Shown here in pieces: positions 4,292 to 20,361 of a stretch of 64,000 nucleotides of DNA (within the stretch, counting starts at the first letter, position 1; each line of letters opens with the position of its first letter). The notes under the pieces were generated by a model, which saw only the letters and a list, made by a program, of their open reading frames with translations, had not been told where the DNA came from and did not search any database. This stretch comes from Nitrosopumilus sp. (GTDB lineage Archaea > Thermoproteota > Nitrososphaeria > Nitrososphaerales > Nitrosopumilaceae). The stretch lies in NCBI GenBank assembly GCA_965214775.1, contig OZ243974.1, positions 2,560,001 to 2,624,000 on the forward strand, in the 5' to 3' direction. The translations under genes and the position numbers were made by a program.

Positions 4292-4340
4292 TTTTTGAGA
4301 AAACCCCAATAATTTTATGTTAATTCTACTGGTTTCCACT

Positions 4341-4874
4341 ATGGGTAAAAAAGATCTTGTTGTTTGGTCTAAAGATCAACTATTGTCATGGTCTGATTTT
4401 AAAGCCGAGTCCAATCCTGCAGCTTATGAGAATTCTCACAGTTACATAAAATATCACCACACATGGACTGTGAACTCTGAAAAAATGGGACGTGAGGTCT
4501 TCTTTTACATAGAAAATCTCCAAATTCATGTTCATTTTCATACCTTGTTATCCTGGGTGCGAGAGTCTGAAATGTCTGACTTTCTTTTATTGCACGAACA
4601 AGGCCACTTTGATTTAGCTGAAAAAATACGTCAAGAAAATGTTCAAAAAATTCAGGATGTTTTTTATGGGAAAAAATTTTCGATCAGAGGACAGAATGAA
4701 GAGCAAATAAGACAAAATGCAAAAGAAGACTCGGGAATAATGATTTCACAAGAAATTGAAAAGTTAGAAAAAATTCTATCTCAAAGAAGAAAAGAGTATG
4801 ATTCGTTAACTGATTTTGGAAGTAAGAATTTTGAACAGCAAAAATTCAACCAAACATTTTCATCACTGCACTGA
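4341..4874 (+). CDS. DUF922-like putative Zn metallopeptidase
   Basis: LSWSDFK and LLLHEQGHFDLAE (HExxH) motifs. Confidence 0.75.
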   Translation: MGKKDLVVWSKDQLLSWSDFKAESNPAAYENSHSYIKYHHTWTVNSEKMGREVFFYIENLQIHVHFHTLLSWVRESEMSDFLLLHEQGHFDLAEKIRQENVQKIQDVFYGKKFSIRGQNEEQIRQNAKEDSGIMISQEIEKLEKILSQRRKEYDSLTDFGSKNFEQQKFNQTFSSLH

Positions 4875-6288: not shown

Positions 6289-6789
6289 ATGTCTTTTGAG
6301 ATTGACTGGAAAAGAAATTTTTATGGAATTTCTTGGGCGTATGAAAAGGACAGACTAGTTATCTCCACGGTATTTGAGGATAAAAAAGAAGCAATGTTGG
6401 TTGCCAAAGAAGTTGAAGATTGGAGTGATAGATTTACAAGATTAACAATCATAGAAAAGGCAAACGATGAGTTTGCAATTTGTTGCTACCAAGATCCGCA
6501 AATTTCCAAAAAGAAAAACCATGTCGGATTGTTTAGAACCGGAATGAGACAAAGTGGAGGATATAAACAAGCCAAACCGATGATCGAAGAAAAATCCCCG
6601 TTATTACAAATCGCATATGCCGCAGATGCAAGAGACATGAACACGTATGAGCAAATTTCAAGACTGGTTCCAATGCGAAAATGCAGAATTATCTCAGAAA
6701 AAGACTTGAAAAAACAAGAGTACTTTTACGAAAAAACCGCAAATTTTGAAAGTCATGGAAAAATGACGGGGTTCAAACCAGAAATTTGA
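6289..6789 (+). CDS. hypothetical protein
   Basis: 166-aa ORF with ATG start. Confidence 0.75.
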   Translation: MSFEIDWKRNFYGISWAYEKDRLVISTVFEDKKEAMLVAKEVEDWSDRFTRLTIIEKANDEFAICCYQDPQISKKKNHVGLFRTGMRQSGGYKQAKPMIEEKSPLLQIAYAADARDMNTYEQISRLVPMRKCRIISEKDLKKQEYFYEKTANFESHGKMTGFKPEI

Positions 6790-6924
6790 ATCTGGCACCG
6801 TCCATGATCATCCGTATCACATGTGAAAAAAATCGAATCTGAAGAAGATCCATATTTCAGGTCTCGAAGATTACACAGAACCCCCCACAACACTCTTTAT
6901 ATTCATAAATGACCTCTTACATAT

Positions 6925-7560
6925 ATGGCAATGGTAAACGAGCTGAAGAACCCGTTTGATTATTTTAGATCTGAGTTGGAGAACGTTTTTGGAGTTGAAC
7001 AAAAACAGCTAAACGCATTGATCAGCGCCTACAATAAAACCGGTTATAACACACCGCTCAAAAAACTTGCCGAGATGCTTGGATCTGAAAACGACTATGG
7101 TTTTGCTGAGGTGCATATATTTCCCCTTTGTTGTGTTTCTTACGAATATTTTCAAAGCAAAGACAATACCAATACATTCCTAGCAAAGTCAAACCTCACA
7201 CCAAAAACCAAGAAATCTATCAAGTATTTTTTTTCCAAACTAACTGATAAAGGGCTGCGTGGCTTGGAAGTTCAATATCATGTTTATGGAAACCTGTTTG
7301 ATTTCCAAGCACTGGATCCTATAAGCGACAATAACATACTACTAGAAATAAAAGATCAGTCTAACAAAGCCGTCTGCTATCTTCCTGTTACTAGAATCAC
7401 GTTTGCCCGTGGTGGCGACGATGAAAAAACAATATCGTCTGAATTTTCTCAGGATAGGCTGGCTCATCTCATCTCAACACTACAGTCAATTTATGATAGA
7501 AACTCCGCACTGACTAAAACATATAAAAAATCCATAAAAGACCTGCCTGTGATTGAATAA
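6925..7560 (+). CDS. hypothetical protein, candidate prokaryotic COMMD-like protein
   Basis: 211 aa; helical N-terminus and C-terminal YLPVTRITF...TISSEFSQDRLAHLISTLQSIY resembling a COMM domain; TTTATA at about 6896. Confidence 0.6.
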   Translation: MAMVNELKNPFDYFRSELENVFGVEQKQLNALISAYNKTGYNTPLKKLAEMLGSENDYGFAEVHIFPLCCVSYEYFQSKDNTNTFLAKSNLTPKTKKSIKYFFSKLTDKGLRGLEVQYHVYGNLFDFQALDPISDNNILLEIKDQSNKAVCYLPVTRITFARGGDDEKTISSEFSQDRLAHLISTLQSIYDRNSALTKTYKKSIKDLPVIE

Positions 7561-7562
7561 AA

Positions 7563-8291
7563 ATGATGTCATATGCACAAGCTAGCACATCTGGAATCTC
7601 AAGGTCTCATTCTAGACGCTATCGACTTGTACGGGTAAAAACCAAGCACAAATCATCTAGCACATACGTACGATCTGGACTGTCGCCTAATTCATTAGAA
7701 TTCTTGAAGACCAAGGATACCATCAGGATTAGGCGTGCAAAAGTGGTGAAAATTCAGAAAATCGTACTGGCTGGATCAAACAAGCGGAACTATGCAACAA
7801 CTTCCATACGAGCGGATTCGAAAGAGAGAGTGGCCTATGTAAGGAAATTCTTTAGAAACCGTCCCAGAGTACAGCCCCATCGGGAATCAAAAACAAAAGA
7901 AATCCGTCGTTACATACAAACTCAGCAATGGGACAAGCTGGTTCCCTACGTGGATGAACTAATCCAGCAAATAGATCTGGGTGCAGTCGCCCTGCCCCTC
8001 ATATCAAAATTATTGGACTCTGTCACGCAGGACTATGCAGTCATGGAAAAAAATGCATTCATGCACGAGGTAATCCAGTCAGTCACCATTTTACTAAAGG
8101 ATGTCATGATATCTGCAATACAAAACAACACCGTTGACGCCATCAATAGTGCAAAACGCATCAGGGAAATTCTGCTGGCCGCGCAAGAAGTTTCTCGCGT
8201 TGCATCAGAGGAAGGCCTGTCTCCCTTGCCAGTGTCTAAACTAGTTCAAATTGACGTGATAAAAGGCAGGCCAATATATGCCCTCAAATAA
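7563..8291 (+). CDS. hypothetical protein, Arg/Lys-rich N-half and helical C-half
   Basis: 242-aa ORF starting 2 bp after the previous stop and overlapping the next gene. Confidence 0.65.
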   Translation: MMSYAQASTSGISRSHSRRYRLVRVKTKHKSSSTYVRSGLSPNSLEFLKTKDTIRIRRAKVVKIQKIVLAGSNKRNYATTSIRADSKERVAYVRKFFRNRPRVQPHRESKTKEIRRYIQTQQWDKLVPYVDELIQQIDLGAVALPLISKLLDSVTQDYAVMEKNAFMHEVIQSVTILLKDVMISAIQNNTVDAINSAKRIREILLAAQEVSRVASEEGLSPLPVSKLVQIDVIKGRPIYALK

Positions 8292-8634
8292 AGAAATCGT
8301 ACTAGTCAAGGATGGCGGTTCATATCCCGACAAGGTCATGCATGAGGGTGATTCACTAGGCATAGGTACTCAAACCCATTCCTTCTATTGGAAAAAGGAG
8401 GGGCCTCAAAACCACGACTATGAACCTCTTGCCATACTGTCTGCTGAAAGGTGTGGGCTGTCCAGATACCACTATCGAGGATTGGTCGTATGGAAAGACT
8501 ACACCGTTAAAAACGGCAAGCCGATAGCGTCATTTGCCCGGGTCTGGCACACCCCCGTTCTGTGCTCTACACATAAGATCACTTATTCTCAGCCATCGGA
8601 TGTTATTGATCGTTTAAAATTAATTGGGTATTTA

Positions 8635-9929
8635 GGCGTTGTCCGGAATCGTGATTTTAGGACGTGATTTCCGGGGAGATTTGTACAAAATCATGGCGCA
8701 ATGACTGCAAACATAGAGACGAATCCGCACTCCGGCCCGCATTGTGCAGTTATGGCCCGTGTTTTGACGTCATACTGCATAGCATCCGCTAGCCGGACGA
8801 TTCCACCGTACCGGCATTATGGATCCTAGCTGACCAGATTGTAGCAGAATACCTTGAGGGTAAGCCTGAGCGACTGCATCGGAAGCGACATGGCGCGCAC
8901 CGTGGAGTCAAACCTTGCCTTTATCGACGAGAAGGCCGACTCAACGAGGCTGCGCTGGTGGTACGTCTTCTCGAATCCCTCGGGGTCCTTTTTGTGCCAT
9001 CTTAGCATCTTGGAGCGGGCGTTGAACCCGTGAACCGTATATCCTGTACGCGGACATATCACTGGGGTTCTGCCTCCGTCGGCTATGACCCTGCAGTTCT
9101 CATACGAGTCGTATGCGGCATCCAGGATCACGTGTCCTGTGCCGTTGGGAACCTGCGGTAGCAGCTCGTTACGGAACACCGGGGAATCATGGAATTCGCC
9201 CGGCGTCACCTCGCAGGCGGCAATCTTGCCGTGCGGGGCCAACAGTATGTGCAGCTTGGCAAACATCTGCCTGGATATGACGCCCTTCTTTGCGTCCTCC
9301 CATGTGTGGTATCTCATTATGGAGAAACCGCTAGAGTCGCCAAGCAACGTTCCCCTGGCGTCTGCGCCTGCCTGTTCTGAGAGTACCGATCTTAGCACCG
9401 ACTTGTCCCAGGCAGCTATCCTTACGGCTGCATCATGCAGTGTCGACTTGGCCGGAACCTTTTTGAGCCCGTACATGTTAGTTGAACCAGGATTCGACTC
9501 CATGTATTCGACGTGCCTGCGATACGAGTTTCCGCGGTACTCCATGTCGAGTACGCACAGAAGATAGGGAATTTCATCCTCTTGCTCTGTGTTATGGAGG
9601 AGGGACAGGAGGATCTTGCGGATCTTTTTGATTCCGATGCCGCACCTCTTGCTGTCCTCTCTCCTTTTTTTCTCGTACTCGGCATAGTATTCCGGAGGTC
9701 TCGTGTACTCTGACTTTTTTTTCTTGCTGGTCTTGCTGGATTCCTTCTTGGATTCCTTCTTGGATTCCTTCTTGGATTCCTTCTTGGATTCCTTCTTGGA
9801 TTCCTTCTTGTTGGTCTTTGATTTCATTGATACGGGGACGTCGATCCTATGATCCATAAGGTTGTCGCATCCTGCGCTTATGATCTATAAGCTTATCGGT
9901 AGATTTCTGGAAAAATTCCGGACAACGCC
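8635..9929 (-). mobile_element. IS5-family element, 15-bp TIR GGCGTTGTCCGGAAT, 9-bp TSD GGGTATTTA
   Basis: TIRs and TSD (8626-8634, 9930-9938) read directly. Confidence 0.9.
8826..9857 (-). CDS. IS5-family DDE transposase with (KKES)6 tract
   Basis: GDSSG, KLH, HDSP, LDAAYD, YHQRSLVESAFSSIK motifs; 12-bp unit x6 at 9738-9809. Confidence 0.85.
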   Translation of the reverse strand: MDHRIDVPVSMKSKTNKKESKKESKKESKKESKKESKKESSKTSKKKKSEYTRPPEYYAEYEKKRREDSKRCGIGIKKIRKILLSLLHNTEQEDEIPYLLCVLDMEYRGNSYRRHVEYMESNPGSTNMYGLKKVPAKSTLHDAAVRIAAWDKSVLRSVLSEQAGADARGTLLGDSSGFSIMRYHTWEDAKKGVISRQMFAKLHILLAPHGKIAACEVTPGEFHDSPVFRNELLPQVPNGTGHVILDAAYDSYENCRVIADGGRTPVICPRTGYTVHGFNARSKMLRWHKKDPEGFEKTYHQRSLVESAFSSIKARFDSTVRAMSLPMQSLRLTLKVFCYNLVS

Positions 9930-10208
9930 GGGTATTTACTTCCCAAAATCCGACAAATGAGTAAAAACACAGACAAATATTCGGCGCGCGGATATGCTGA
10001 GAAAATTGTTGATGACAGGATTCCTCCTGAACGAAAACTCCGATGGAGTGATTTTGACTACTATGTTATGATTGCGCCTTTTTGCGACTATGGAAAACTC
10101 CCTGCAAAAATACCTGACAAGATAAACAAATTTGTAATGTGACAGCGTATGAGGCACATCCCCTTGCGAACCAAGCGTAAAAATCACATTTGCATACAAA
10201 TTTGCTCC

Positions 10209-10291
10209 TATAGCAACACGCAGAAGTCTTTGAGTCAAAACACGGTCAGATTGCCCGTGAAAGACCTCAATTACTTGTGACCGTTGCTATA
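10209..10291 (+). mobile_element. MITE family B
   Basis: TA-TAGCAACACGCAGAAGTCTTTGAGTC...CCTCAATTACTTGTGACCGTTGCTA-TA. Confidence 0.9.
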
Positions 10292-10363
10292 GCTGTTTGA
10301 GAGAAGATGACCCCGCACTTCGATCCCGGTAAATCACATATCCCTAAAAATCGTGGGCAAGCG

Positions 10364-10743
10364 GTGAGGGTCTTGGTGTATGACGAATGTGCAGTAGATG
10401 ACGATTATTCAAAAATTTTACAGATCAAGGACATTCCTGAACCCGTCCCAAAACCTAACGAAGTTGTTTTTAGAGTCGAGACGACAGATCTCAACTATGA
10501 TGATACTTGGGCAATGAGAGGAAAGCCCTTGGTAGTTCCCTTGTCGCACATCTCTGGCACCGATGCCGCAGGCGAGGTTACCACTGTGGGAGACGACGTT
10601 AAAAATTTCATAGTCGACAAAGTTGTCTCATGGAAACATGTCCTGCAAAGTTTGCAGGTACTACACAAGTGGAGAAGAATACAACCGCAAACAAAAAAAT
10701 TGAGGATTTGAAACCGGTTCGCTCTGGGGAGTGTACTGTGAAG
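10364..10743 (+). pseudogene. Zn-dependent (MDR) alcohol dehydrogenase 5' fragment
   Basis: KILQIKDIPEPVPKPNEVVFRV...HISGTDAAGEV; frameshifted near the structural Zn site and truncated. Confidence 0.75.
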
Positions 10744-11619: not shown

Positions 11620-13746
11620 GTACAACTTCAGGTCCTTTTTATACTGACAGTCAAACATTTTTGGGCAGCATCTTATGATCAGATGCCCCTCCGAACATGG
11701 CTGAACATCAGACATTTGTGATCAGACATTGCAGGTTTGGAATTTACGGGAGTGACATAATATCGGCATCTTGGTCAAAGAATTTCGATGGAAATCTTTT
11801 TTGATCTTGCCTGTCTGATGTAACATATGGACTCCAAAGCCGTGCTTGCACACTGTACGGATCCTGGAAAGGCACTTGTCATGATCATGGAGCAGGATGA
11901 GAAGATCTCCGGGCTGGAAAAAGAACTCTCTATTGTCAAGAAGGAGAATGCTGATGTCAAGAAGGAGAACTCTAAGCTTCAGGCAAGGCTTGCCCTGTAC
12001 GAGAGTCCCAACATGCCCACGTCCACGCCGTCATTATACAATGATGCCAGAAGAAAGTTCAGGGAGAAAAGGGGCGAGGATCCCGGCGGCAGTCCCGGCG
12101 ATGCTGCTCGGGGCAAGAAACGCGGCCCTCCGTGCGGACACCATGGTACATCGCACGGCAACCGGCCATCAATGACATTAAGGTACGATCTTGGCTCCAA
12201 AATATGCCCAAAGTGCAACATCCAGTTACGGATGCTCAAGCCGATCCACAAGCTTGTAAACGACCTGGACGGTTTTATGCGCATGCTCACTGCCAATGCC
12301 ATCATCCAAAACGCGGTGTGTCCACAGTGCAATACCGTGCATGTCGCAGCTACCCCGTTTCTAAGCGGCACGTCACTTGGGCCCGTCTCACTCTCTCTAA
12401 TCATGATGTTCTTTGAGAAGGGAAACACAGACGAGGACATTGCAGAGTACTTTCAGTATATGTTTGGATTCAAGATGGCCCCAAATACCGTGACTGCCGC
12501 CCGGCACGCAGTGGCAGAGGCGATTCAACAAAACATGATACAACGCATACAGTCATTCATTGCGGGCAGGCCGTGGATACAGATGGACGAGACCGGATTT
12601 AAGCGCGGCGACGGACACATGGGATACGTCTGGGTGCTCAACTGCGAGGGGGCGTGCTTTGTGGTATTTGCAGATTCCCGGTCCTCTGAGGTACTGCACA
12701 CGCACTTTGGATGGCTGGATCCCAAGACTCCCATAGTCGTAGACGGACTGGCCCAGTACAAGCTGTTCTTTGTGACAATCCAGAGGTGTTGGAGGCACCT
12801 TCTGGCGTATGCAGAAAAGCTTGCAGTAAAGATGCCCGAAGGCGATAACGAGAAAAGGTATGACTTGCTGCTGGAATTCTACAGGAAGATAGATAAAATC
12901 AAGACGCTTGCGCCGCTTACATGCATGGAGCTTTCCAGGGAAGTATACAAAATAATCAACCCGTATGAGGACGTTCACGTGCGTACACACCTGCTAAACG
13001 CCATACATAACATGTTTACGTGTCTGGCGCATCGGGGAATGCCGCTGCACAACAACGATACGGAGCGGTGCATACGCGACGGGATCATACCACAACGCAA
13101 TGCACGTCACAAGATTGTAACTGACGGGGGAAGAAAGACGGCTTCTGCGCTGCTGACATTTTCGATGACATGTCGCAAGCAGAATATACATCCTGCCGGC
13201 GGACTCTTGAAATACCTGCGGAATCCGGGCTGGGATGTCTTTGCAGAAGCAGGAGATGATGATGATAATGCGCGCCTGCTGTCCTCGCTTGCCAATACGG
13301 ACGGTACAAGATACAGCGTCTTTGAGTGTCCCGGGCCGCCGCCGGCGTGGCCGCCTGTAGTCGATGATGACGCAGGCAGTGAAGGAGGAGCGGTACGCCG
13401 GAACCGGACGGCCGTCGTACCAGCAGCAGCAGCTCCCATAACAACATGATCCGTCTGGCGCCTACGGGACGGCGTAACCCGTAGCTTTATGTCAAAGAAT
13501 CCGGCCGTGTAGGCAAGTCTGCCAGTCAACAACGCCTGACAAATCTGACAATGCTGGTTTCCTGCAGGTGCCGTCTGCCAATAATCTGTTGTCTGCCAAT
13601 AATCTGTTGTCTGCGCGCTGCCGGTCTTGCATATACAAGGGACGTGTGATGATGATGTAGCGGGTCTGTCACAGCAGATGCGGAAGGATCAAAAAGTTCC
13701 GGGCAAAAAGTTCCCTAGTCAGTATAAAAAGGACCTGAAGTTGTAC
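11620..13746 (+). mobile_element. IS66-family single-ORF element (ISBst12-like), copy 1, 2127 bp
   Basis: 29-bp TIR GTACAACTTCAGGTCCTTTTTATACTGAC; 8-bp TSD CTTCCTTG (11612-11619, 13747-13754). Confidence 0.92.
11827..13449 (+). CDS. IS66-family transposase
   Basis: Coiled coil, CPKC/CPQC Zn finger, MDETG, QRCWRHL, HNNDTERCIR motifs. Confidence 0.9.
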   Translation: MDSKAVLAHCTDPGKALVMIMEQDEKISGLEKELSIVKKENADVKKENSKLQARLALYESPNMPTSTPSLYNDARRKFREKRGEDPGGSPGDAARGKKRGPPCGHHGTSHGNRPSMTLRYDLGSKICPKCNIQLRMLKPIHKLVNDLDGFMRMLTANAIIQNAVCPQCNTVHVAATPFLSGTSLGPVSLSLIMMFFEKGNTDEDIAEYFQYMFGFKMAPNTVTAARHAVAEAIQQNMIQRIQSFIAGRPWIQMDETGFKRGDGHMGYVWVLNCEGACFVVFADSRSSEVLHTHFGWLDPKTPIVVDGLAQYKLFFVTIQRCWRHLLAYAEKLAVKMPEGDNEKRYDLLLEFYRKIDKIKTLAPLTCMELSREVYKIINPYEDVHVRTHLLNAIHNMFTCLAHRGMPLHNNDTERCIRDGIIPQRNARHKIVTDGGRKTASALLTFSMTCRKQNIHPAGGLLKYLRNPGWDVFAEAGDDDDNARLLSSLANTDGTRYSVFECPGPPPAWPPVVDDDAGSEGGAVRRNRTAVVPAAAAPITT

Positions 13747-16608: not shown

Positions 16609-17958
16609 GTGAACACCTTTGGAAGCCATCAACCCAGCATAATTCCCCTAGAGTTAACTGAAAACCAATTTCAGATATATGGCAAGATTTCCAGAAATTA
16701 TGATCATTCTTTTCTCTTTGAGTCCTTGACAGGTCCTGAAGTTCTAGCCGAAACATCAGTAATGGGTTTTGACCCAAAAAAAATCATCACGGGATTTTCA
16801 GACAGGGTGGAAATTATTTCCAAAGACAAGACAGAAACAATCCAAGCAAGGGATCCGTTTGCAGAAATCAAGAAGCTGTTGAGAAGATCAGAGAACCAGA
16901 GCTACCGGTATCTTGGAGGGGCAGTAGGTGCAGTAAACTATGATGCCATCAGACTGGTAGAAGACATTCCTGATTCAAATTCTTCAGCAGACCCGCTTAT
17001 GGAGTTTGGAATATATGATGACGGGATACTGTACGATAACTTGCACAAAAAATTATTTTACTTTTACTACGATGAGAATCGATTTGACCAATTCAAGATA
17101 TCTGACGATGTGTTCGGGAAATACAGCGCTACGGGGGCCATTCCAAACTCAAACAATGAACAGTTCGCAGAAATGGTAAACAAGGCAAAGAAATACATCC
17201 ATGATGGAGACATCTTTCAGGTTGTCCTGTCAAGAAAATTTGTATTCGAGTCGTCAGGGGATGATTTAACGCTGTACAAGACTTTGAGAAAGATGAATCC
17301 TTCGCCGTACATGTACCACTTGAAGCAGGGACAAAAGACCATCATCGGCGCATCCCCCGAAATGCTAGTCCGAATTACAAACGACAGGGTTGAAACGTTC
17401 CCTATTGCAGGTACAAGAAAAGTTACCGGTGATGATGATGAAAACAGGAGACTGGCAGGGGAATTACTCGATGATGAAAAGGAATTGGCAGAACATACCA
17501 TGCTGGTGGATTTGGGAAGAAATGACATTGGAAGAGTATGCAAGTTTGGAACGGTTCGTCCAGAATCACTGATGCAGATTAAGCGATTCAGCCATGTTCA
17601 ACACATTGTCACTCATATTGTGGGCAATCTGGCCCCAAAAAATGACATGTTTGATGCCTTCAAGGCGGTATTTCCTGCAGGAACCGTTTCTGGGGCGCCA
17701 AAAGTAAGAGCCATGGAAATCATCGACGAGCTAGAAAGCGAGGCCAGAGGCCCATATGCAGGGGCCGTAGGGTATTTTTCGTACAACGGATGCTGCGATT
17801 TTGCAATTGCCATAAGAAGCATTTTCATAGAGGACGGCAAAGGGTTTTTGCAGTCCGGGGCAGGCATTGTTTCAGATTCCGTTGCACAAAACGAATTCAA
17901 GGAAACAGAACACAAGGCAGGAGCCATGCTTCAAGCATTAAGGGAGGCATCAAATTGA
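16609..17958 (+). CDS. trpE: anthranilate synthase component I
   Basis: FLFES, GDIFQVVLS, ASPE, PIAGT, EHTMLVDLGRND, GTVSGAPK. Confidence 0.97.
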   Translation: MNTFGSHQPSIIPLELTENQFQIYGKISRNYDHSFLFESLTGPEVLAETSVMGFDPKKIITGFSDRVEIISKDKTETIQARDPFAEIKKLLRRSENQSYRYLGGAVGAVNYDAIRLVEDIPDSNSSADPLMEFGIYDDGILYDNLHKKLFYFYYDENRFDQFKISDDVFGKYSATGAIPNSNNEQFAEMVNKAKKYIHDGDIFQVVLSRKFVFESSGDDLTLYKTLRKMNPSPYMYHLKQGQKTIIGASPEMLVRITNDRVETFPIAGTRKVTGDDDENRRLAGELLDDEKELAEHTMLVDLGRNDIGRVCKFGTVRPESLMQIKRFSHVQHIVTHIVGNLAPKNDMFDAFKAVFPAGTVSGAPKVRAMEIIDELESEARGPYAGAVGYFSYNGCCDFAIAIRSIFIEDGKGFLQSGAGIVSDSVAQNEFKETEHKAGAMLQALREASN

Positions 17959-18545
17959 AATTTTTGATCATAGACAATTACGATTCGTTTGTTTTCAATA
18001 TCGCCCAATACTTGGGGGAAATCGGAGTCGATTCAGACGTAGTACGGAACGACAAGATCACATTAGAAGAGATCAAAGAATCAGATTATGATGCCATCAT
18101 AATCTCTCCTGGTCCGGGAACTCCCGAAGATAAAAGGTACTTTGGCGTGTGCAGCGATGTCATCAAAGACATCGGAAGGCAGACCCCCATACTCGGGGTC
18201 TGTTTAGGACATCAAGGAATCATTCACGCGTTTGGAGGAAAAGTAACAAATGCAGGATGTGTCAGGCATGGAAAAACAAGTCCGATAAACCATGAGAATT
18301 CGAGACTGTTCAGGGATGTAAGGAATCCGTTTAGAGCAACCAGATATCACAGTTTGGTAGGAGACAAGGCAATAATTCCAGACATTCTTGAAGTCACGGC
18401 AACTGCAGCTGATGATGGGGAGGTCATGGCAATCAGACACAAGGAATTCCTGATCGAGGGGGTTCAGTTTCATCCAGAGTCAATCATGACCGAAGATGGA
18501 AAGAAGATTTTGGAGAATTTTGTAAGCGAGGTGAAAACAAGATGA
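17955..18545 (+). CDS. trpG: anthranilate synthase component II
   Basis: IIDNYDSF, SPGPG, GVCLGHQ, QFHPES; TTG start overlapping trpE stop. Confidence 0.96.
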   Translation: MKFLIIDNYDSFVFNIAQYLGEIGVDSDVVRNDKITLEEIKESDYDAIIISPGPGTPEDKRYFGVCSDVIKDIGRQTPILGVCLGHQGIIHAFGGKVTNAGCVRHGKTSPINHENSRLFRDVRNPFRATRYHSLVGDKAIIPDILEVTATAADDGEVMAIRHKEFLIEGVQFHPESIMTEDGKKILENFVSEVKTR

Positions 18546-19585
18546 CCATTGTGGAAATTATCTCAAAATTACAAGGCAGGGCGGATCTTACATACGATGA
18601 GATCAACGGCGTCATGGCAAACGTTCTTTCCGGAGACACGACGCTTGAAGAAAACATGGAATTCCTGTCAAGCCTTGCTGAAAAGGGGGAGACAGATGAC
18701 GAGTTATTCGGGATGCTTGAGAAGATGCAAGAACTGTCGCTGAAAGTTGATCTAAGGACAGACGGGACAGTCATTGACATGTGTGGAACCGGGGGAGACA
18801 GATTGCAGACGTTTAACATCTCAACTGCGGCATCATTTGTGGTTGCTGCAGCAGGAGGCAAGGTTGCAAAGCATGGCAACCGATCTAGCTCAGGCGTTTC
18901 AGGCAGTGCAGACATCTTTGAGTATTTCGGATACGATTTGAACCAAGAGCCATCCAAGATTGCCAAAACGCTAGAAAAGCACAACATCTGTTTCATGTTT
19001 GCACAGAAATTCCATCCAGCTATGAGGCATGTTGGGCCTGCAAGAAAGCAGCTGGGAAGAAGAACCGCGTTTAACCTGCTAGGACCGCTGTCAAATCCGG
19101 CAAATGTAAAGAATCAACTGGTGGGGGTCTTTTCAATCGAGTATCTAGACAGACTTCCTTCCATTCTAAAGAGAAGGGGAGCTGAAAACATCATGACGGT
19201 ACGCTCGGATGATGGAATGGACGAATTTTCAACCAGTTCTGTCAACAGGGTGTGCATTCTAAGGGATGGCAGGGTTCTGACATATGCAATAGATCCTGAA
19301 ATTCTCGGACTGCACAAGTCAAATCTTAAAGACATTCAGATCGCAACAAAAGAAGAGGCAGTCAGTTCCTTTGTCAGCGTGCTAAACAATACAGCAAACA
19401 GGTCAATGATTGAAACATGTGCGCTAAACGCAGCAGGGGGTTTGATTGTCGCAAACAAGGCTGCAAATTTTGAGGAGGCAGTTCAAATCGCATTAAATAC
19501 GATTGATAGCGGAGATGCATTCAAATTGTTAGAGAGTTTTCTCAAGGATGCAGGAGACATTTCAAGATTAAGGGAGACGGCATGA
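18542..19585 (+). CDS. trpD: anthranilate phosphoribosyltransferase
   Basis: CGTGGD, FNIST, KHGNRSSSG. Confidence 0.97.
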   Translation: MTIVEIISKLQGRADLTYDEINGVMANVLSGDTTLEENMEFLSSLAEKGETDDELFGMLEKMQELSLKVDLRTDGTVIDMCGTGGDRLQTFNISTAASFVVAAAGGKVAKHGNRSSSGVSGSADIFEYFGYDLNQEPSKIAKTLEKHNICFMFAQKFHPAMRHVGPARKQLGRRTAFNLLGPLSNPANVKNQLVGVFSIEYLDRLPSILKRRGAENIMTVRSDDGMDEFSTSSVNRVCILRDGRVLTYAIDPEILGLHKSNLKDIQIATKEEAVSSFVSVLNNTANRSMIETCALNAAGGLIVANKAANFEEAVQIALNTIDSGDAFKLLESFLKDAGDISRLRETA

Positions 19586-20361
19586 TGGCTGAAAATATTC
19601 TAAGAAAACTGGTAAGCAATTCCCAAGTGGCAATAGATGACGGAACATACGACATAGATGTCAATTTAGAAAGATCTCAGAAAGACTTTATTCAGATAAT
19701 CAGCACAAATCCACACCCAACCCTTCTGACTGAAATCAAATTCGCATCGCCGTCGCTAGGAAAAATAAGAACTGTTTCAGATCCTGCAAGCGTGGCAAAA
19801 CAGATGATTTCTGGAGGCTCAAGGGCACTCTCGGTTCTGACACAGCCGCATTTGTTTAGCGGTTCGCCAGATTATTTTATCAAGGTAAGAGAGGCAGTAG
19901 GCGTTCCCCTGCTGATGAAAGACATCATGATAGACAAAATCCAAATTGACGCTGCTAAAAAGATGGGTGCAGACTATATACTTCTAATACAGTCATTGTT
20001 TGACAATGGGTTTCTAAGTGAAATTGGCGAGTTTATCGATTACGGGCACAAAAAAGGATTGAAGATACTGCTTGAAGTCCACACAAAAGACGAATTCAAA
20101 AATGCACTAGGGACAAATGCGGACCTGATTGGAATCAACAACAGGAATCTAGATACTCTGGAGATCGATCTTGGCACTACCAGAAAGGTTCTTGAGAACT
20201 TTGATGGTTCTCGTCCAATTCTCTCTGAGAGCGGGATTCAAACGCCAGAAGACATCCGGTATTTGAAGAAATGCGGCGCCAAGGCATTTCTGGTCGGCTC
20301 AAGCATTATGAAAAGTGGCGGCATTGAAGAACAAGTAAGGGGGTTGGCAAGGGCATATTGA
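19582..20361 (+). CDS. trpC: indole-3-glycerol phosphate synthase
   Basis: [26 protein letters not shown]. Confidence 0.95.

Follow-up and report, generated by a model that had tools for sequence, protein, structure and literature searches.

Is the 211-residue protein encoded at positions 6925 to 7560 of this 64,000-nucleotide stretch of Nitrosopumilus DNA (the window) a relative of the eukaryotic COMMD proteins, and what might it do together with the genes that follow it? A preliminary description of the locus had proposed a COMMD homologue on the basis of size and sequence pattern. Structural modelling now makes it likely, at a probability of roughly 85%, that the protein is a prokaryotic COMMD relative, a figure that covers identity, fold and the predicted COMM-domain dimer taken together.

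The gene begins with an ATG and lies on the forward strand, where the 211-codon reading frame and the C-terminal string quoted for it are present as described. The ORF listing of the window contains no other open reading frame of 50 or more codons that overlaps the gene in either orientation. When 1.84 billion representative sequences were scanned in full with HMMER, 45 homologues emerged at E <= 0.001 (15 of them at <= 1e-10), nearly all about 210 residues long and aligned end to end with the window protein, and comparisons with a paralogue and two orthologues give dN/dS values of 0.27 to 0.62. These full-length relatives and this selective constraint imply that the reading frame at 6925 to 7560 is genuine and did not arise by chance. 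The TATA-like box TTTATATT at 6896 to 6903 (forward strand) is centred about 25 to 26 nucleotides upstream of the ATG, a spacing typical of leaderless archaeal mRNAs, so by analogy with established archaeal promoters it may direct transcription of the gene. The sequence blocks shared with a genome of another genus (G503) and with the paralogue both start at 6891/6892, just 5' of this box. The genome also encodes an archaeal AmoA (E 3.1e-116), which fits the thaumarchaeal host suggested earlier.

Ordinary sequence searches say little about this protein. Pfam returns only noise (SAC3_GANP, E 0.15; HTH_62, E 0.22) and no COMM_domain match at E <= 1, and the protein alone has no matches in NCBIfam, PDB (phmmer), PHROGs or PADLOC. 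The viral fold library BFVD likewise gives no match at E <= 1e-3. Single-protein searches for the loci of relatives found none for the window protein in viral contigs, none for P0012 and P0019 in genome contigs and none for P0027 in metagenome contigs. Protein clusters of the family carry only the name "hypothetical protein".

The predicted structure is far more informative. An AlphaFold2 model built with the 45-sequence alignment has a pLDDT of 91.3 and a pTM of 0.81, whereas the model from the single sequence (pLDDT 36.3) is unusable. Residues 1 to 124 (6925 to 7296, forward strand) form a domain resembling the helical N-terminal (HN) domain of COMMD proteins, with helices over residues 3 to 124, in agreement with the helical segment of about 115 residues that had been read from the sequence. 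This domain lies within the full-length Foldseek and VIA-align alignments, and in the model and alignments it is all-helical with COMMD topology. Residues 125 to 211 (7297 to 7557, forward strand) correspond to the COMM domain. They form a three-stranded antiparallel sheet (130 to 143, 149 to 162 and 168 to 175) followed by a long helix (176 to 203), which is the beta-beta-beta-alpha order anticipated in the preliminary description. The pLDDT values of this block are 80 to 98, and P154 is nearly invariant.

Structural searches with the model return COMMD proteins above every other fold. Foldseek finds 17 PDB matches at E <= 1e-3; every one of the 11 listed is a COMMD or COMMD-like chain, and the remaining 6 are additional chains from these entries. 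The best is the COMMD-like chain 9q6a_B (E 1.7e-7), accompanied by 9q6c, 8p0w, 8f2r and 8esd, and these alignments cover 192 to 224 columns, that is, both domains. In VIA-align the six top entries are again all COMMD or COMMD-like, with Z scores of 6.6 to 7.7, where values of 7 to 8 are "middling" on the tool's own scale, and the next entry is Pur-alpha at Z 5.2. The COMM domain of COMMD9 (6bp6_A) aligns over 77 of 78 residues (Z 7.7, rmsd 2.4 A) and 8esd_F over 75 of 75 (Z 7.4), and 9q6a_B aligns over 190 residues, spanning model residues 8 to 211 (Z 7.6, rmsd 7.3 A). Whole-chain TM-scores in Foldseek are low (0.30 to 0.46) and the rmsds high, because the orientation of one domain to the other differs from that of chains within assemblies. 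The size-and-pattern proposal is thus borne out at the level of predicted fold.

Family-level sequence comparisons point in the same direction. The top matches of the family profile in the PDB are to human COMMD8, at marginal E-values of 0.025 and 0.027, and the alignment (profile positions 152 to 192) spans the proline, strands 2 and 3 and the helix. The Pfam family matched by most members is COMM_domain, with 5 of 45 matching at E <= 1, all below threshold and all on the correct C-terminal segment. The best member scores 18.1 bits (E 0.003), and the two of 40 members that match at E <= 0.02 both do so on model positions 27 to 64 of 64. The 211-residue protein itself does not reach the PF07258 gathering threshold of 22.4 bits, a six-frame COMM_domain scan of the whole genome misses the locus (its best match, E 0.29, lies elsewhere), and even the family profile gives no sequence-level match to 9q6a. 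These signals are weak but consistent in position, and as far as they go they agree with a COMMD identity. The protein contains no tryptophan, so the conserved COMM tryptophan that the preliminary description had failed to see is indeed missing. [quoted passage not shown]

The proposed dimer check also gives a positive result, in that two copies are predicted to form a symmetric homodimer through residues 127 to 211 and a few HN residues, with the symmetric pairs 183:183 and 186:186, as would be expected if two COMM domains interlock. Three predictions gave ipSAE values of 0.60, 0.58 and 0.55 (median 0.58), and the best control gave 0.01. The mark set by the tool was attained by 20 of 30 proteins whose solved structure is a pair of one chain, and among 23 proteins solved singly by 1; this calibration applies only roughly because a user-built alignment was supplied, and memory of solved COMMD dimers may have aided the prediction. 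The runs have at least 87% of contacts in common, and the pLDDT of the partner is at least 83. By analogy with the solved bacterial (9q6a/9q6c) and human (8f2r) assemblies, such dimers would, with a somewhat better than even chance, assemble into a closed ring, a homo-octamer or homo-decamer, whose HN domains face outwards.

Two other folds deserve comparison at this point, since both turn up in the structural searches. The chlamydial proteins Cpn0803 (3q9d) and CT584 (4mlk) also combine a helical N-terminal domain with a COMM-like C-terminal domain, and according to PMC13392464 they form hexamers by N-domain contacts, so a relative of this type would not build COMM-domain rings. Foldseek (E 2.1e-3) and VIA-align (Z 3.4 and 2.9) do recover them, but both searches rank these much weaker matches far below the COMMD and COMMD-like chains. 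The predicted self-contact, modelled as a dimer only, runs through the COMM domain and not the N-domain, and PMC13392464 describes the family as exclusive to Chlamydiales, which together leave this assignment very improbable. Fainter still is the chance that the C-terminal domain is a nucleic-acid-binding module of the Pur-alpha/Whirly type that resembles COMM by convergence and binds DNA or RNA. Borrelia Pur-alpha (3nm7) is the top non-COMMD match (63 residues in the VIA-align comparison; Foldseek E 0.11), it has in common a small beta-sheet with a C-terminal helix and a similar mode of dimerization, and the neighbours of the gene include mobile-DNA and restriction-type genes. However, PMC13392464 characterizes that group by four strands, repeated modules, a charged surface and the lack of an HN domain, whereas the model has three strands, a single module and an HN-type N-domain foreign to PUR. 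The near-neutral pI of the protein (6.84) and the acidic pI of its COMM part (5.31) also speak against a basic binding surface, and the sequence signals favour COMM over PUR. A COMMD relative therefore remains the preferred reading of the protein.

COMMD-like proteins of prokaryotes are, after papers of 2024 to 2026, no longer a new kind. PMC13392464 (Liu et al., Nat Commun 2026) describes them and solves an octameric bacterial example, MBK5214510 (PDB 9q6a/9q6c), and PMC12962969 (Nat Microbiol 2026) describes homologues in Asgard archaea. The fold was recognized here from raw sequence, where two groups had required genome-wide structure prediction. The window protein resembles those of PMC13392464 in its length of about 210 residues, its HN and COMM domains, its predicted COMM homodimer and its being missed by ordinary sequence searches, as the published members also escape sequence methods. 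Unlike what the available parts of that paper describe, the window gene leads a conserved three-gene cassette with a recent transfer between genera, and it has a second copy in the same genome, whereas most genomes there hold at most one. With the Asgard homologues it shares an archaeal host, the HN and COMM domains and very little sequence identity with the COMMDs of eukaryotes, and those proteins were modelled as homomultimers; it differs in belonging to another archaeal lineage, a comparison made by description and not by sequence. The eukaryotic COMMD1 to COMMD10 (8f2r, 8p0w, 8esd, 6bp6) have the same two-domain fold, but identity in the structural alignments is only 6 to 16%, and a single homomeric protein here contrasts with the heterodecamer of ten paralogues that CCDC22 and CCDC93 bind in the Commander/CCC complex. 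Because PMC13392464, in its available passages, reports no CCDC22, CCDC93 or Retriever partners in prokaryotes, the endosomal role is not transferable.

The locus extends COMMD-like proteins to ammonia-oxidizing archaea. These organisms are not named in the main text of PMC13392464, supplements aside, although its Supplementary Dataset S1 is a list of 111 archaeal proteins, and PMC12962969 speaks of "some other prokaryotes", without names in its available passages. The main texts consulted do not mention COMMD together with Thaumarchaeota or Nitrososphaer* names, and their supplements may list such proteins.

The COMMD-like gene is the first of three. Gene 2 (7563 to 8291, forward strand; 242 residues) begins 2 nucleotides past the stop codon of gene 1 and belongs to no known family. 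Its N-terminal part is very basic (pI 11.8 for residues 1 to 105), its C-terminal part is near neutral, and its dN/dS is 0.31 to 0.44. Within it lies, in frame, a 132-nucleotide copy of a miniature inverted-repeat transposable element (MITE) at 7677 to 7808, and these 44 codons account for the roughly 46 extra residues that appear as an alignment gap against the orthologue in genome G470. Blastn gives another 76 matches to the MITE in this genome, the consensus has terminal inverted repeats of about 18 nucleotides, and the matches listed include at least 42 in the genome of the window (G000) and at least about 40 in G503. Rfam has no match to 6700 to 8000, which means that the MITE does not belong to a described RNA family.

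Gene 3 is split. Its first 119 codons (8278 to 8634, forward strand) share 14 nucleotides with the end of gene 2 and are 98% identical to residues 1 to 119 of the intact 186-residue product in G503; the reading frame listed at 8278 to 8667 continues from this part into an insertion sequence (IS). This IS5-family element (8635 to 9929, reverse strand; 1,295 bp) has perfect 15-nucleotide terminal inverted repeats (8635 to 8649 and 9915 to 9929) and a transposase reading frame at 8826 to 9857 (reverse strand) that matches DDE_Tnp_1 (E 2.1e-15) and, under the curated cut-off, an IS5-family transposase (E 1.8e-28). It is flanked by a 9-bp target-site duplication, GGGTATTTA, at 8626 to 8634 on the left and 9930 to 9938 on the right, and G503 has the empty site. 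The last 60 or so codons of gene 3, displaced by the element to 9930 to 10142 (forward strand), are 100% identical over 61 residues to the C-terminal end of the unbroken gene in G503 and match profile positions 131 to 191. The gene 3 family has 15 invariant residues, among them H, E, D, E, R, H and H, and no sequence match in Pfam or PDB; its matches in the Atlas have few features in common. The cassette in the window is thus damaged by the MITE in gene 2 and the IS in gene 3, and its COMMD-like gene is intact.

The same order of genes 1, 2 and 3 is found in five genomes (G000, G503, G470, G307 and G224), with spacings between the genes of -29 (an overlap) to +52 nucleotides, and the three genes are probably co-transcribed. 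The dN/dS values place all three under purifying selection. This order is kept although the COMMD-like proteins of the two cassette subtypes are only 22 to 31% identical. Gene 3 is homologous in all five. The gene 2 types of the two cassettes have no homology detectable by BLASTP (E 0.81 and 2.1) or by hhalign with very shallow profiles (probability 0.2%), so that in gene 2 it is the position that is conserved, and the sequence diverges fast.

Carriers are rare. The COMMD-like family is present in 8 of 301 genomes of Nitrosopumilaceae (4 of 27 genera); among 401 genomes of the phylum it is found in 4, every one in Nitrosopumilaceae, and in none of 24 from other families of the order. G503, which belongs to another genus, carries a cassette that is 98.5% identical over 1,743 nucleotides, with 98.5 to 99% identity in the COMMD-like gene, while the trp operons of the two genomes are 69% identical, a disparity that indicates horizontal transfer between genera. 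As judged from these comparisons, the cassette belongs to the accessory genome, spreads by horizontal transfer and sits in IS-rich variable regions, and the COMMD-like gene behaves like a rare accessory gene that passes from one genus to another. A provirus was considered as the setting in G307 and rejected, since the adjoining terminase is truncated (343 residues, covering profile positions 18 to 212 of 576) and marks at most a remnant; none of 10 downstream reading frames there matches structural phage families. Nor do we claim a role in defence, for which PADLOC offers only a weak GajB match to the G307 gene 2 (E 0.0034).

What the cassette does may be tentatively sketched. Two copies of the COMMD-like protein would dimerize symmetrically by their COMM domains and the dimers would form a ring, and this ring might, though the odds are against it, act as a non-enzymatic platform for organizing the proteins encoded by genes 2 and 3. 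The fuller picture, of one functional mobile module with a ring platform, a putative enzyme from gene 3 and a fast-evolving basic adaptor from gene 2, is a little more doubtful. Because the cassette keeps company with IS elements, restriction-modification genes and a terminase remnant, it could serve in conflicts with mobile DNA or in the maintenance of such DNA. If the module is real, genes 2 and 3 would be the first known case of operon partners of a prokaryotic COMMD-like protein, and through them experiments could directly address what COMMD rings were for prior to their recruitment into Commander in eukaryotes.

An alternative that is possible but not probable is that the ring protein acts alone and that genes 2 and 3 are an independent unit that travels alongside in the same variable islands. 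COMMD-like genes without genes 2 and 3 occur in G002 and at the second locus of the window's genome, and the only trace of the missing genes at such solo loci is one short MITE-encoded peptide match in L014. Conversely, G023 has an overlapping pair of genes 2 and 3 without a COMMD-like gene. In other lineages, the predictions of PMC13392464 yielded no complexes of COMMD-like proteins with neighbouring gene products, and in the window itself gene 1 has survived where gene 3 is destroyed. However, an arrangement with near-zero spacing has been kept in five genomes down to 22 to 31% identity of gene 1, and five of the six genomes with gene 3 have a COMMD-like gene adjoining it. Moreover, the paralogue in the window's genome, which is 78% identical to gene 1, is visibly a truncated cassette copy and not an ancestral solo gene, as its cassette breaks off next to a MITE, at the fifth codon of gene 2. 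The same damage could mean that the cassette of this genome is a decaying remnant whose COMMD-like gene is open and functionless. The MITE in gene 2, the IS with its intact target duplication, the truncated second copy, the crowding of the region with IS elements and gene fragments, and a fairly high dN/dS of 0.58 between the two copies all lend themselves to this view, and clear remnants exist elsewhere, as a fusion behind a methylase fragment in G017 and as copies with stop codons in G029 and at G224:C69. Yet both copies in the window's genome are fully open with dN/dS below 1, and the IS insertion looks recent, because its target-site duplication and terminal repeats are perfect and its flanks are 98.5 to 99.6% identical to the uninterrupted copy in G503. 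Decay of the COMMD-like gene is therefore improbable.

The locus thereby adds a small conserved neighbour set for a COMMD-like gene. PMC13392464 states explicitly that function is open, and published analyses of gene neighbourhoods have turned up no binding partner, so the compact intact cassettes in genomes of cultivable type, such as G503 and G470, are a reasonable place to seek a partner. Concerning distant relatives, the ESM Atlas listing is the sole hint that many of them are bacterial. One cluster of Myxococcota at rank 25 of that listing carries COMM_domain on 23% of its members and can serve as a lead only.

The open reading frame at 6925-7560 (forward strand) starts with ATG and encodes 211 amino acids whose C-terminal part contains the string quoted in the preliminary description, and no other reading frame of at least 50 amino acids overlaps it on either strand of the window. 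An AT-rich, TATA-like TTTATATT box at 6896-6903 lies about 25-26 nt upstream of the ATG. In archaeal promoters, a box at this distance from the start codon fits a leaderless transcript, and this geometry suggests that the gene may be transcribed without a leader. The genome that contains it, a single 2.83-Mb contig, encodes an archaeal AmoA (E 3.1e-116; 0 of 14 control genomes matched), so the host, earlier assumed to be thaumarchaeal, is an ammonia-oxidizing archaeon.

The protein is most probably COMMD-like, a reading that we place at about 0.85. A single-sequence search returned nothing meaningful from Pfam, NCBIfam or the PDB. Its close relatives in a word-indexed search are five proteins with 62-98% identity, and HMMER over 1.84 billion representatives yielded 45 proteins at E<=0.001 (15 at <=1e-10 and 4 at <=1e-30), nearly all of them 203-256 amino acids long and aligned end to end. 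The resulting alignment, A1, holds 45 sequences: the window protein, P0002-P0004 and 41 of the 45 HMMER representatives. Fragments P0013, P0017 and P0045, the locally matching 2,016-aa P0042 and the 98% identical P0001 were omitted. Near-invariant residues are N37, L106 and P154, the last within a G-Y-L-P-x-x-R motif directly before the second predicted strand.

AlphaFold2 models the protein with pLDDT 36.3 without an alignment, and with pLDDT 91.3 and pTM 0.81 when A1 is supplied. The latter model bears out the domain layout first proposed: helices run across residues 3-124, followed by strands at 130-143, 149-162 and 168-175 and a helix at 176-203. Foldseek against the PDB gives 17 matches at E<=1e-3, of which 11 were listed (192-224 columns, probability 1.00) and six are further chains of the same entries; all are COMMD-like or human COMMD entries. 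The best is 9q6a_B (E 1.7e-7), which, like 9q6a_A and 9q6c_A, represents the octameric bacterial COMMD-like protein MBK5214510, and chains of 8p0w, 8f2r and 8esd (human COMMD ring or CCC complex) are also matched. Cpn0803 follows at rank 19 (E 2.1e-3). Whole-chain TM-scores against PDB chains are low (0.30-0.46) because the domains are placed differently in the monomer model and in assembled chains; the COMM domain alone matches 6bp6_A well (TM 0.71, normalized to the target).

The top 997 Foldseek chains were also compared by using VIA-align, whose own warning treats Z below 8 as middling. The first six are again all COMMD or COMMD-like: the COMMD9 COMM domain (Z 7.7, rmsd 2.4 A, 77 of 78 residues), 9q6a_B (Z 7.6 across 190 residues), 8esd_F, 8p0w_E, 8f2r_E and 9q6c_A (Z 6.6). 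Pur-alpha comes next at Z 5.2. The weight of the fold comparison lies in how cleanly one family is set apart and in the fact that both domains are aligned. Sequence comparison points the same way: searching all PDB sequences with the A1 profile places human COMMD8 in the two best positions (E 0.025 and 0.027), with the part of COMMD8 from the proline through strand 2, strand 3 and the helix aligned to profile positions 152-192. The other six of the eight matches at E<=10 are unrelated.

Two copies of the window protein, run with A1 supplied as the alignment, are predicted to dimerize through the COMM domain, with ipSAE values of 0.60, 0.58 and 0.55 (median 0.58; three controls, 0.00, 0.00 and 0.01) that possibly owe something to memory of COMMD dimers already solved. 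The mark used with this tool, which the window pair passes, is reached by 20 of 30 solved one-chain pairs and 1 of 23 solved single chains, a calibration that applies only roughly to a run with a custom alignment. At least 87% of contacts are common to the runs, partner pLDDT is at least 83, and the predicted interface is symmetric (183:183, 186:186), comprising residues 127-211 and a few residues of the helical N-domain. This predicted pairing is evidence of likeness to COMMD dimers and is not proof of binding. Together, the modeled fold, the Foldseek and VIA-align matches, the COMMD8 profile match and the predicted dimer support the proposed COMMD homology.

Pfam assignment is another matter. 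COMM_domain is detected at E<=1 in five of the 45 members, more than any other family (the next reach 3 of 45), and the window protein is not one of the five. At E<=0.02 it is found in 2 of 40 members, P0012 (residues 152-190) and P0047 (residues 156-193), both matching model positions 27-64 of 64 and both below the 22.4-bit Pfam threshold. Scanning the whole host genome with the Pfam COMM model did not recover the window locus. Pfam membership formally fails for the window protein, as it does for published prokaryotic members. The missing COMM Trp remarked on earlier is real, in that the protein (pI 6.84, near neutral) has no tryptophan at all; the main text of Liu et al. describes several prokaryotic COMMD-like proteins with few or no Trp (PMC13392464).

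Such proteins are already known in prokaryotes from two papers (PMC13392464, PMC12962969). The former used crystallography, cryo-EM, MALLS and mass photometry to show homo-octamers and homo-decamers, and the latter reports Asgard homologues and 'some other prokaryotes'. By analogy, the window protein is probably ring-forming. The main text of Liu et al. does not mention Thaumarchaeota, Nitroso- names, Thermoproteota or Crenarchaeota, and in the main texts of the literature searched COMMD was not found together with Thaumarchaeota or Nitrososphaer- names; the supplementary lists may name relatives. The kind of protein is therefore known, and the present lineage is not named in those main texts.

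The most useful new lead is a compact mobile cassette of three genes. In five genomes (the window's own, G503, G470, G307 and G224), the COMMD-like gene comes first, a gene encoding 196-251 amino acids second and one encoding 180-194 amino acids third, with spacings from a 29-nt overlap to a 52-nt gap. In the window, gene 2 is at 7563-8291 and gene 3 at 8278-8634 and 9930-10142. Gene 2 occurs in two types between which no similarity was detected; the N-terminal part of the window type is very basic (pI 11.8). Gene 3, whose copies in the five cassettes are all homologous, shows 21 invariant columns in alignment A2 and 15 in alignment A6 of eight sequences, including H34, E41, D47, E49, R63, H65 and H91, and has no sequence match in Pfam or the PDB. 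It is the most constrained gene of the cassette (dN/dS 0.12-0.24). Values of 0.27-0.62 for the COMMD-like gene, when it is compared with its paralogue and with the orthologues of G503 and G470, imply purifying, though not strong, selection. In G470, a second, diverged gene 2 copy (locus L019, 6496-7140, reverse strand) lies 2 kb from the cassette, with 44% identity over 102 amino acids.

Of the 301 Nitrosopumilaceae genomes searched, 6 contain gene 3, in five of them adjoining a COMMD-like gene. The sixth, G023, carries genes 2 and 3 as a pair overlapping by 8 nt (L020, 3850-5029, reverse strand), without a COMMD-like gene upstream; at a distance of 3.3 kb from this pair, and in the same orientation, there is a homologue of window ORF 6289-6789. 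The COMMD-like gene is solo in G002, and in G490, where the contig ends 0.5 kb from it, gene 2 has no match. In G017 (L011, 6126-6953, reverse strand), its C-terminal two thirds (profile 83-210) form an in-frame fusion downstream of a C-terminal N6/N4 DNA methylase segment (Pfam E 2.3e-26), probably a rearrangement remnant. Linkage with genes 2 and 3 is thus frequent and not obligate. Among metagenomic proteins, P0004 (COMMD-like) and P0057 (gene 2) are each reported on a longest contig of 3,054 bp, and one length, 16,299 bp, is likewise given for both P0011 (COMMD-like; 29% identity with the window protein) and P0051 (gene 3), which hints that more distant members also have the cassette.

In our working model, to which we give well under even odds, a COMMD-like ring would serve as a platform for the products of genes 2 and 3. 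The main rival holds that these genes are mere fellow travelers of the COMMD-like gene. The Myxococcota COMMD-like genes described in the main text of Liu et al. cluster with T6SS-like genes, and no complexes with neighbors were predicted there (PMC13392464).

The family is sparsely distributed. It was found in 4 of 61 genomes of relatives, the window's own included (0 of the 24 that belong to the order's other families), in 4 of 401 drawn evenly across the phylum, all Nitrosopumilaceae, and in 8 of 301 Nitrosopumilaceae (4 of 27 genera); these counts are samples, in which absence means not found among the genomes searched. Cassette DNA at 6892-8634 (1,743 nt) shares 98.5% identity with that of G503, a member of another genus, and 9930-10210 is about 99-99.6% identical, whereas identity across the trp operon, 10 kb away, is 69% with G503 and 73% with G307. 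This disparity in nucleotide identity indicates recent horizontal transfer of the cassette. ORF 6289-6789, upstream of the cassette, is conserved backbone; in G307 its homologue has the trp operon about 6 kb away and the cassette about 1 Mb away. A 57-nt sequence at 6828-6884, just ahead of where the cassette begins, recurs 13 times in the host genome (up to 100% identical) and is 91-100% identical in G503 and G307, versus only about 70% for their backbone DNA. It may represent the end of an IS or MITE, or else a site of integration.

In the window the cassette is damaged. An IS5-family element of 1,295 bp (8635-9929), whose 15-nt inverted ends are perfect and which is flanked by a 9-bp target duplication, splits gene 3 after codon 119 and leaves the last 60 or so codons at 9930-10142. 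The N-terminus of its transposase (9721-9822, reverse strand) includes six tandem 12-nt units encoding a (KESK)n run. Gene 2 carries a 132-nt MITE in frame (44 codons, 7677-7808), as it does in G503, and the G470 orthologue lacks these residues. The MITE family (about 130 nt, terminal inverted repeats of about 18 nt, 72-84% identity) has 76 further blastn matches in the host genome and about 40 among the matches listed in G503, and no match in Rfam; its in-frame presence is tolerated within a protein-coding gene. The repeat ends of the MITE look like those of the IS5-family element, so that IS family may mobilize it. A second COMMD-like gene in the host genome is 78% identical in amino acids and 88.4% in nucleotides. 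The match (window 6891-7578) extends from the TATA-like box through codon 5 of gene 2 and breaks there beside another copy of the same MITE, so this is a truncated duplicate of the cassette.

The neighborhoods are variable islands. The window holds transposases of the IS5 and IS66 families together with a PD-(D/E)XK nuclease; the corresponding neighbors are a type IIG restriction-modification enzyme in G224, an HSP90-like ATPase as well as IS elements in G002, where the COMMD-like gene is solo, and an IS1595 transposase and truncated terminase in G307. The G307 large-terminase gene (L012, 9866-10897; L021, 1866-2897) matches phrog_675 (E 3.3e-49, profile 18-212 of 576) 1.5 kb downstream of the cassette, with no other recognizable structural phage genes after it. 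Between ORF 6289-6789 and the trp operon (16609-20361), the DNA has the look of an insertion hot spot. It contains a zinc-type alcohol dehydrogenase fragment (10307-10711, 134 amino acids, ADH_N only), within a block 94-98% identical to G503, and then an IS66-family transposase (11827-13449). A 185-aa ORF at 4317-4874 (forward strand), which may encode a small metallopeptidase-like protein, contains the motif H-E-x-x-H and matches DUF922 weakly (E 0.034).
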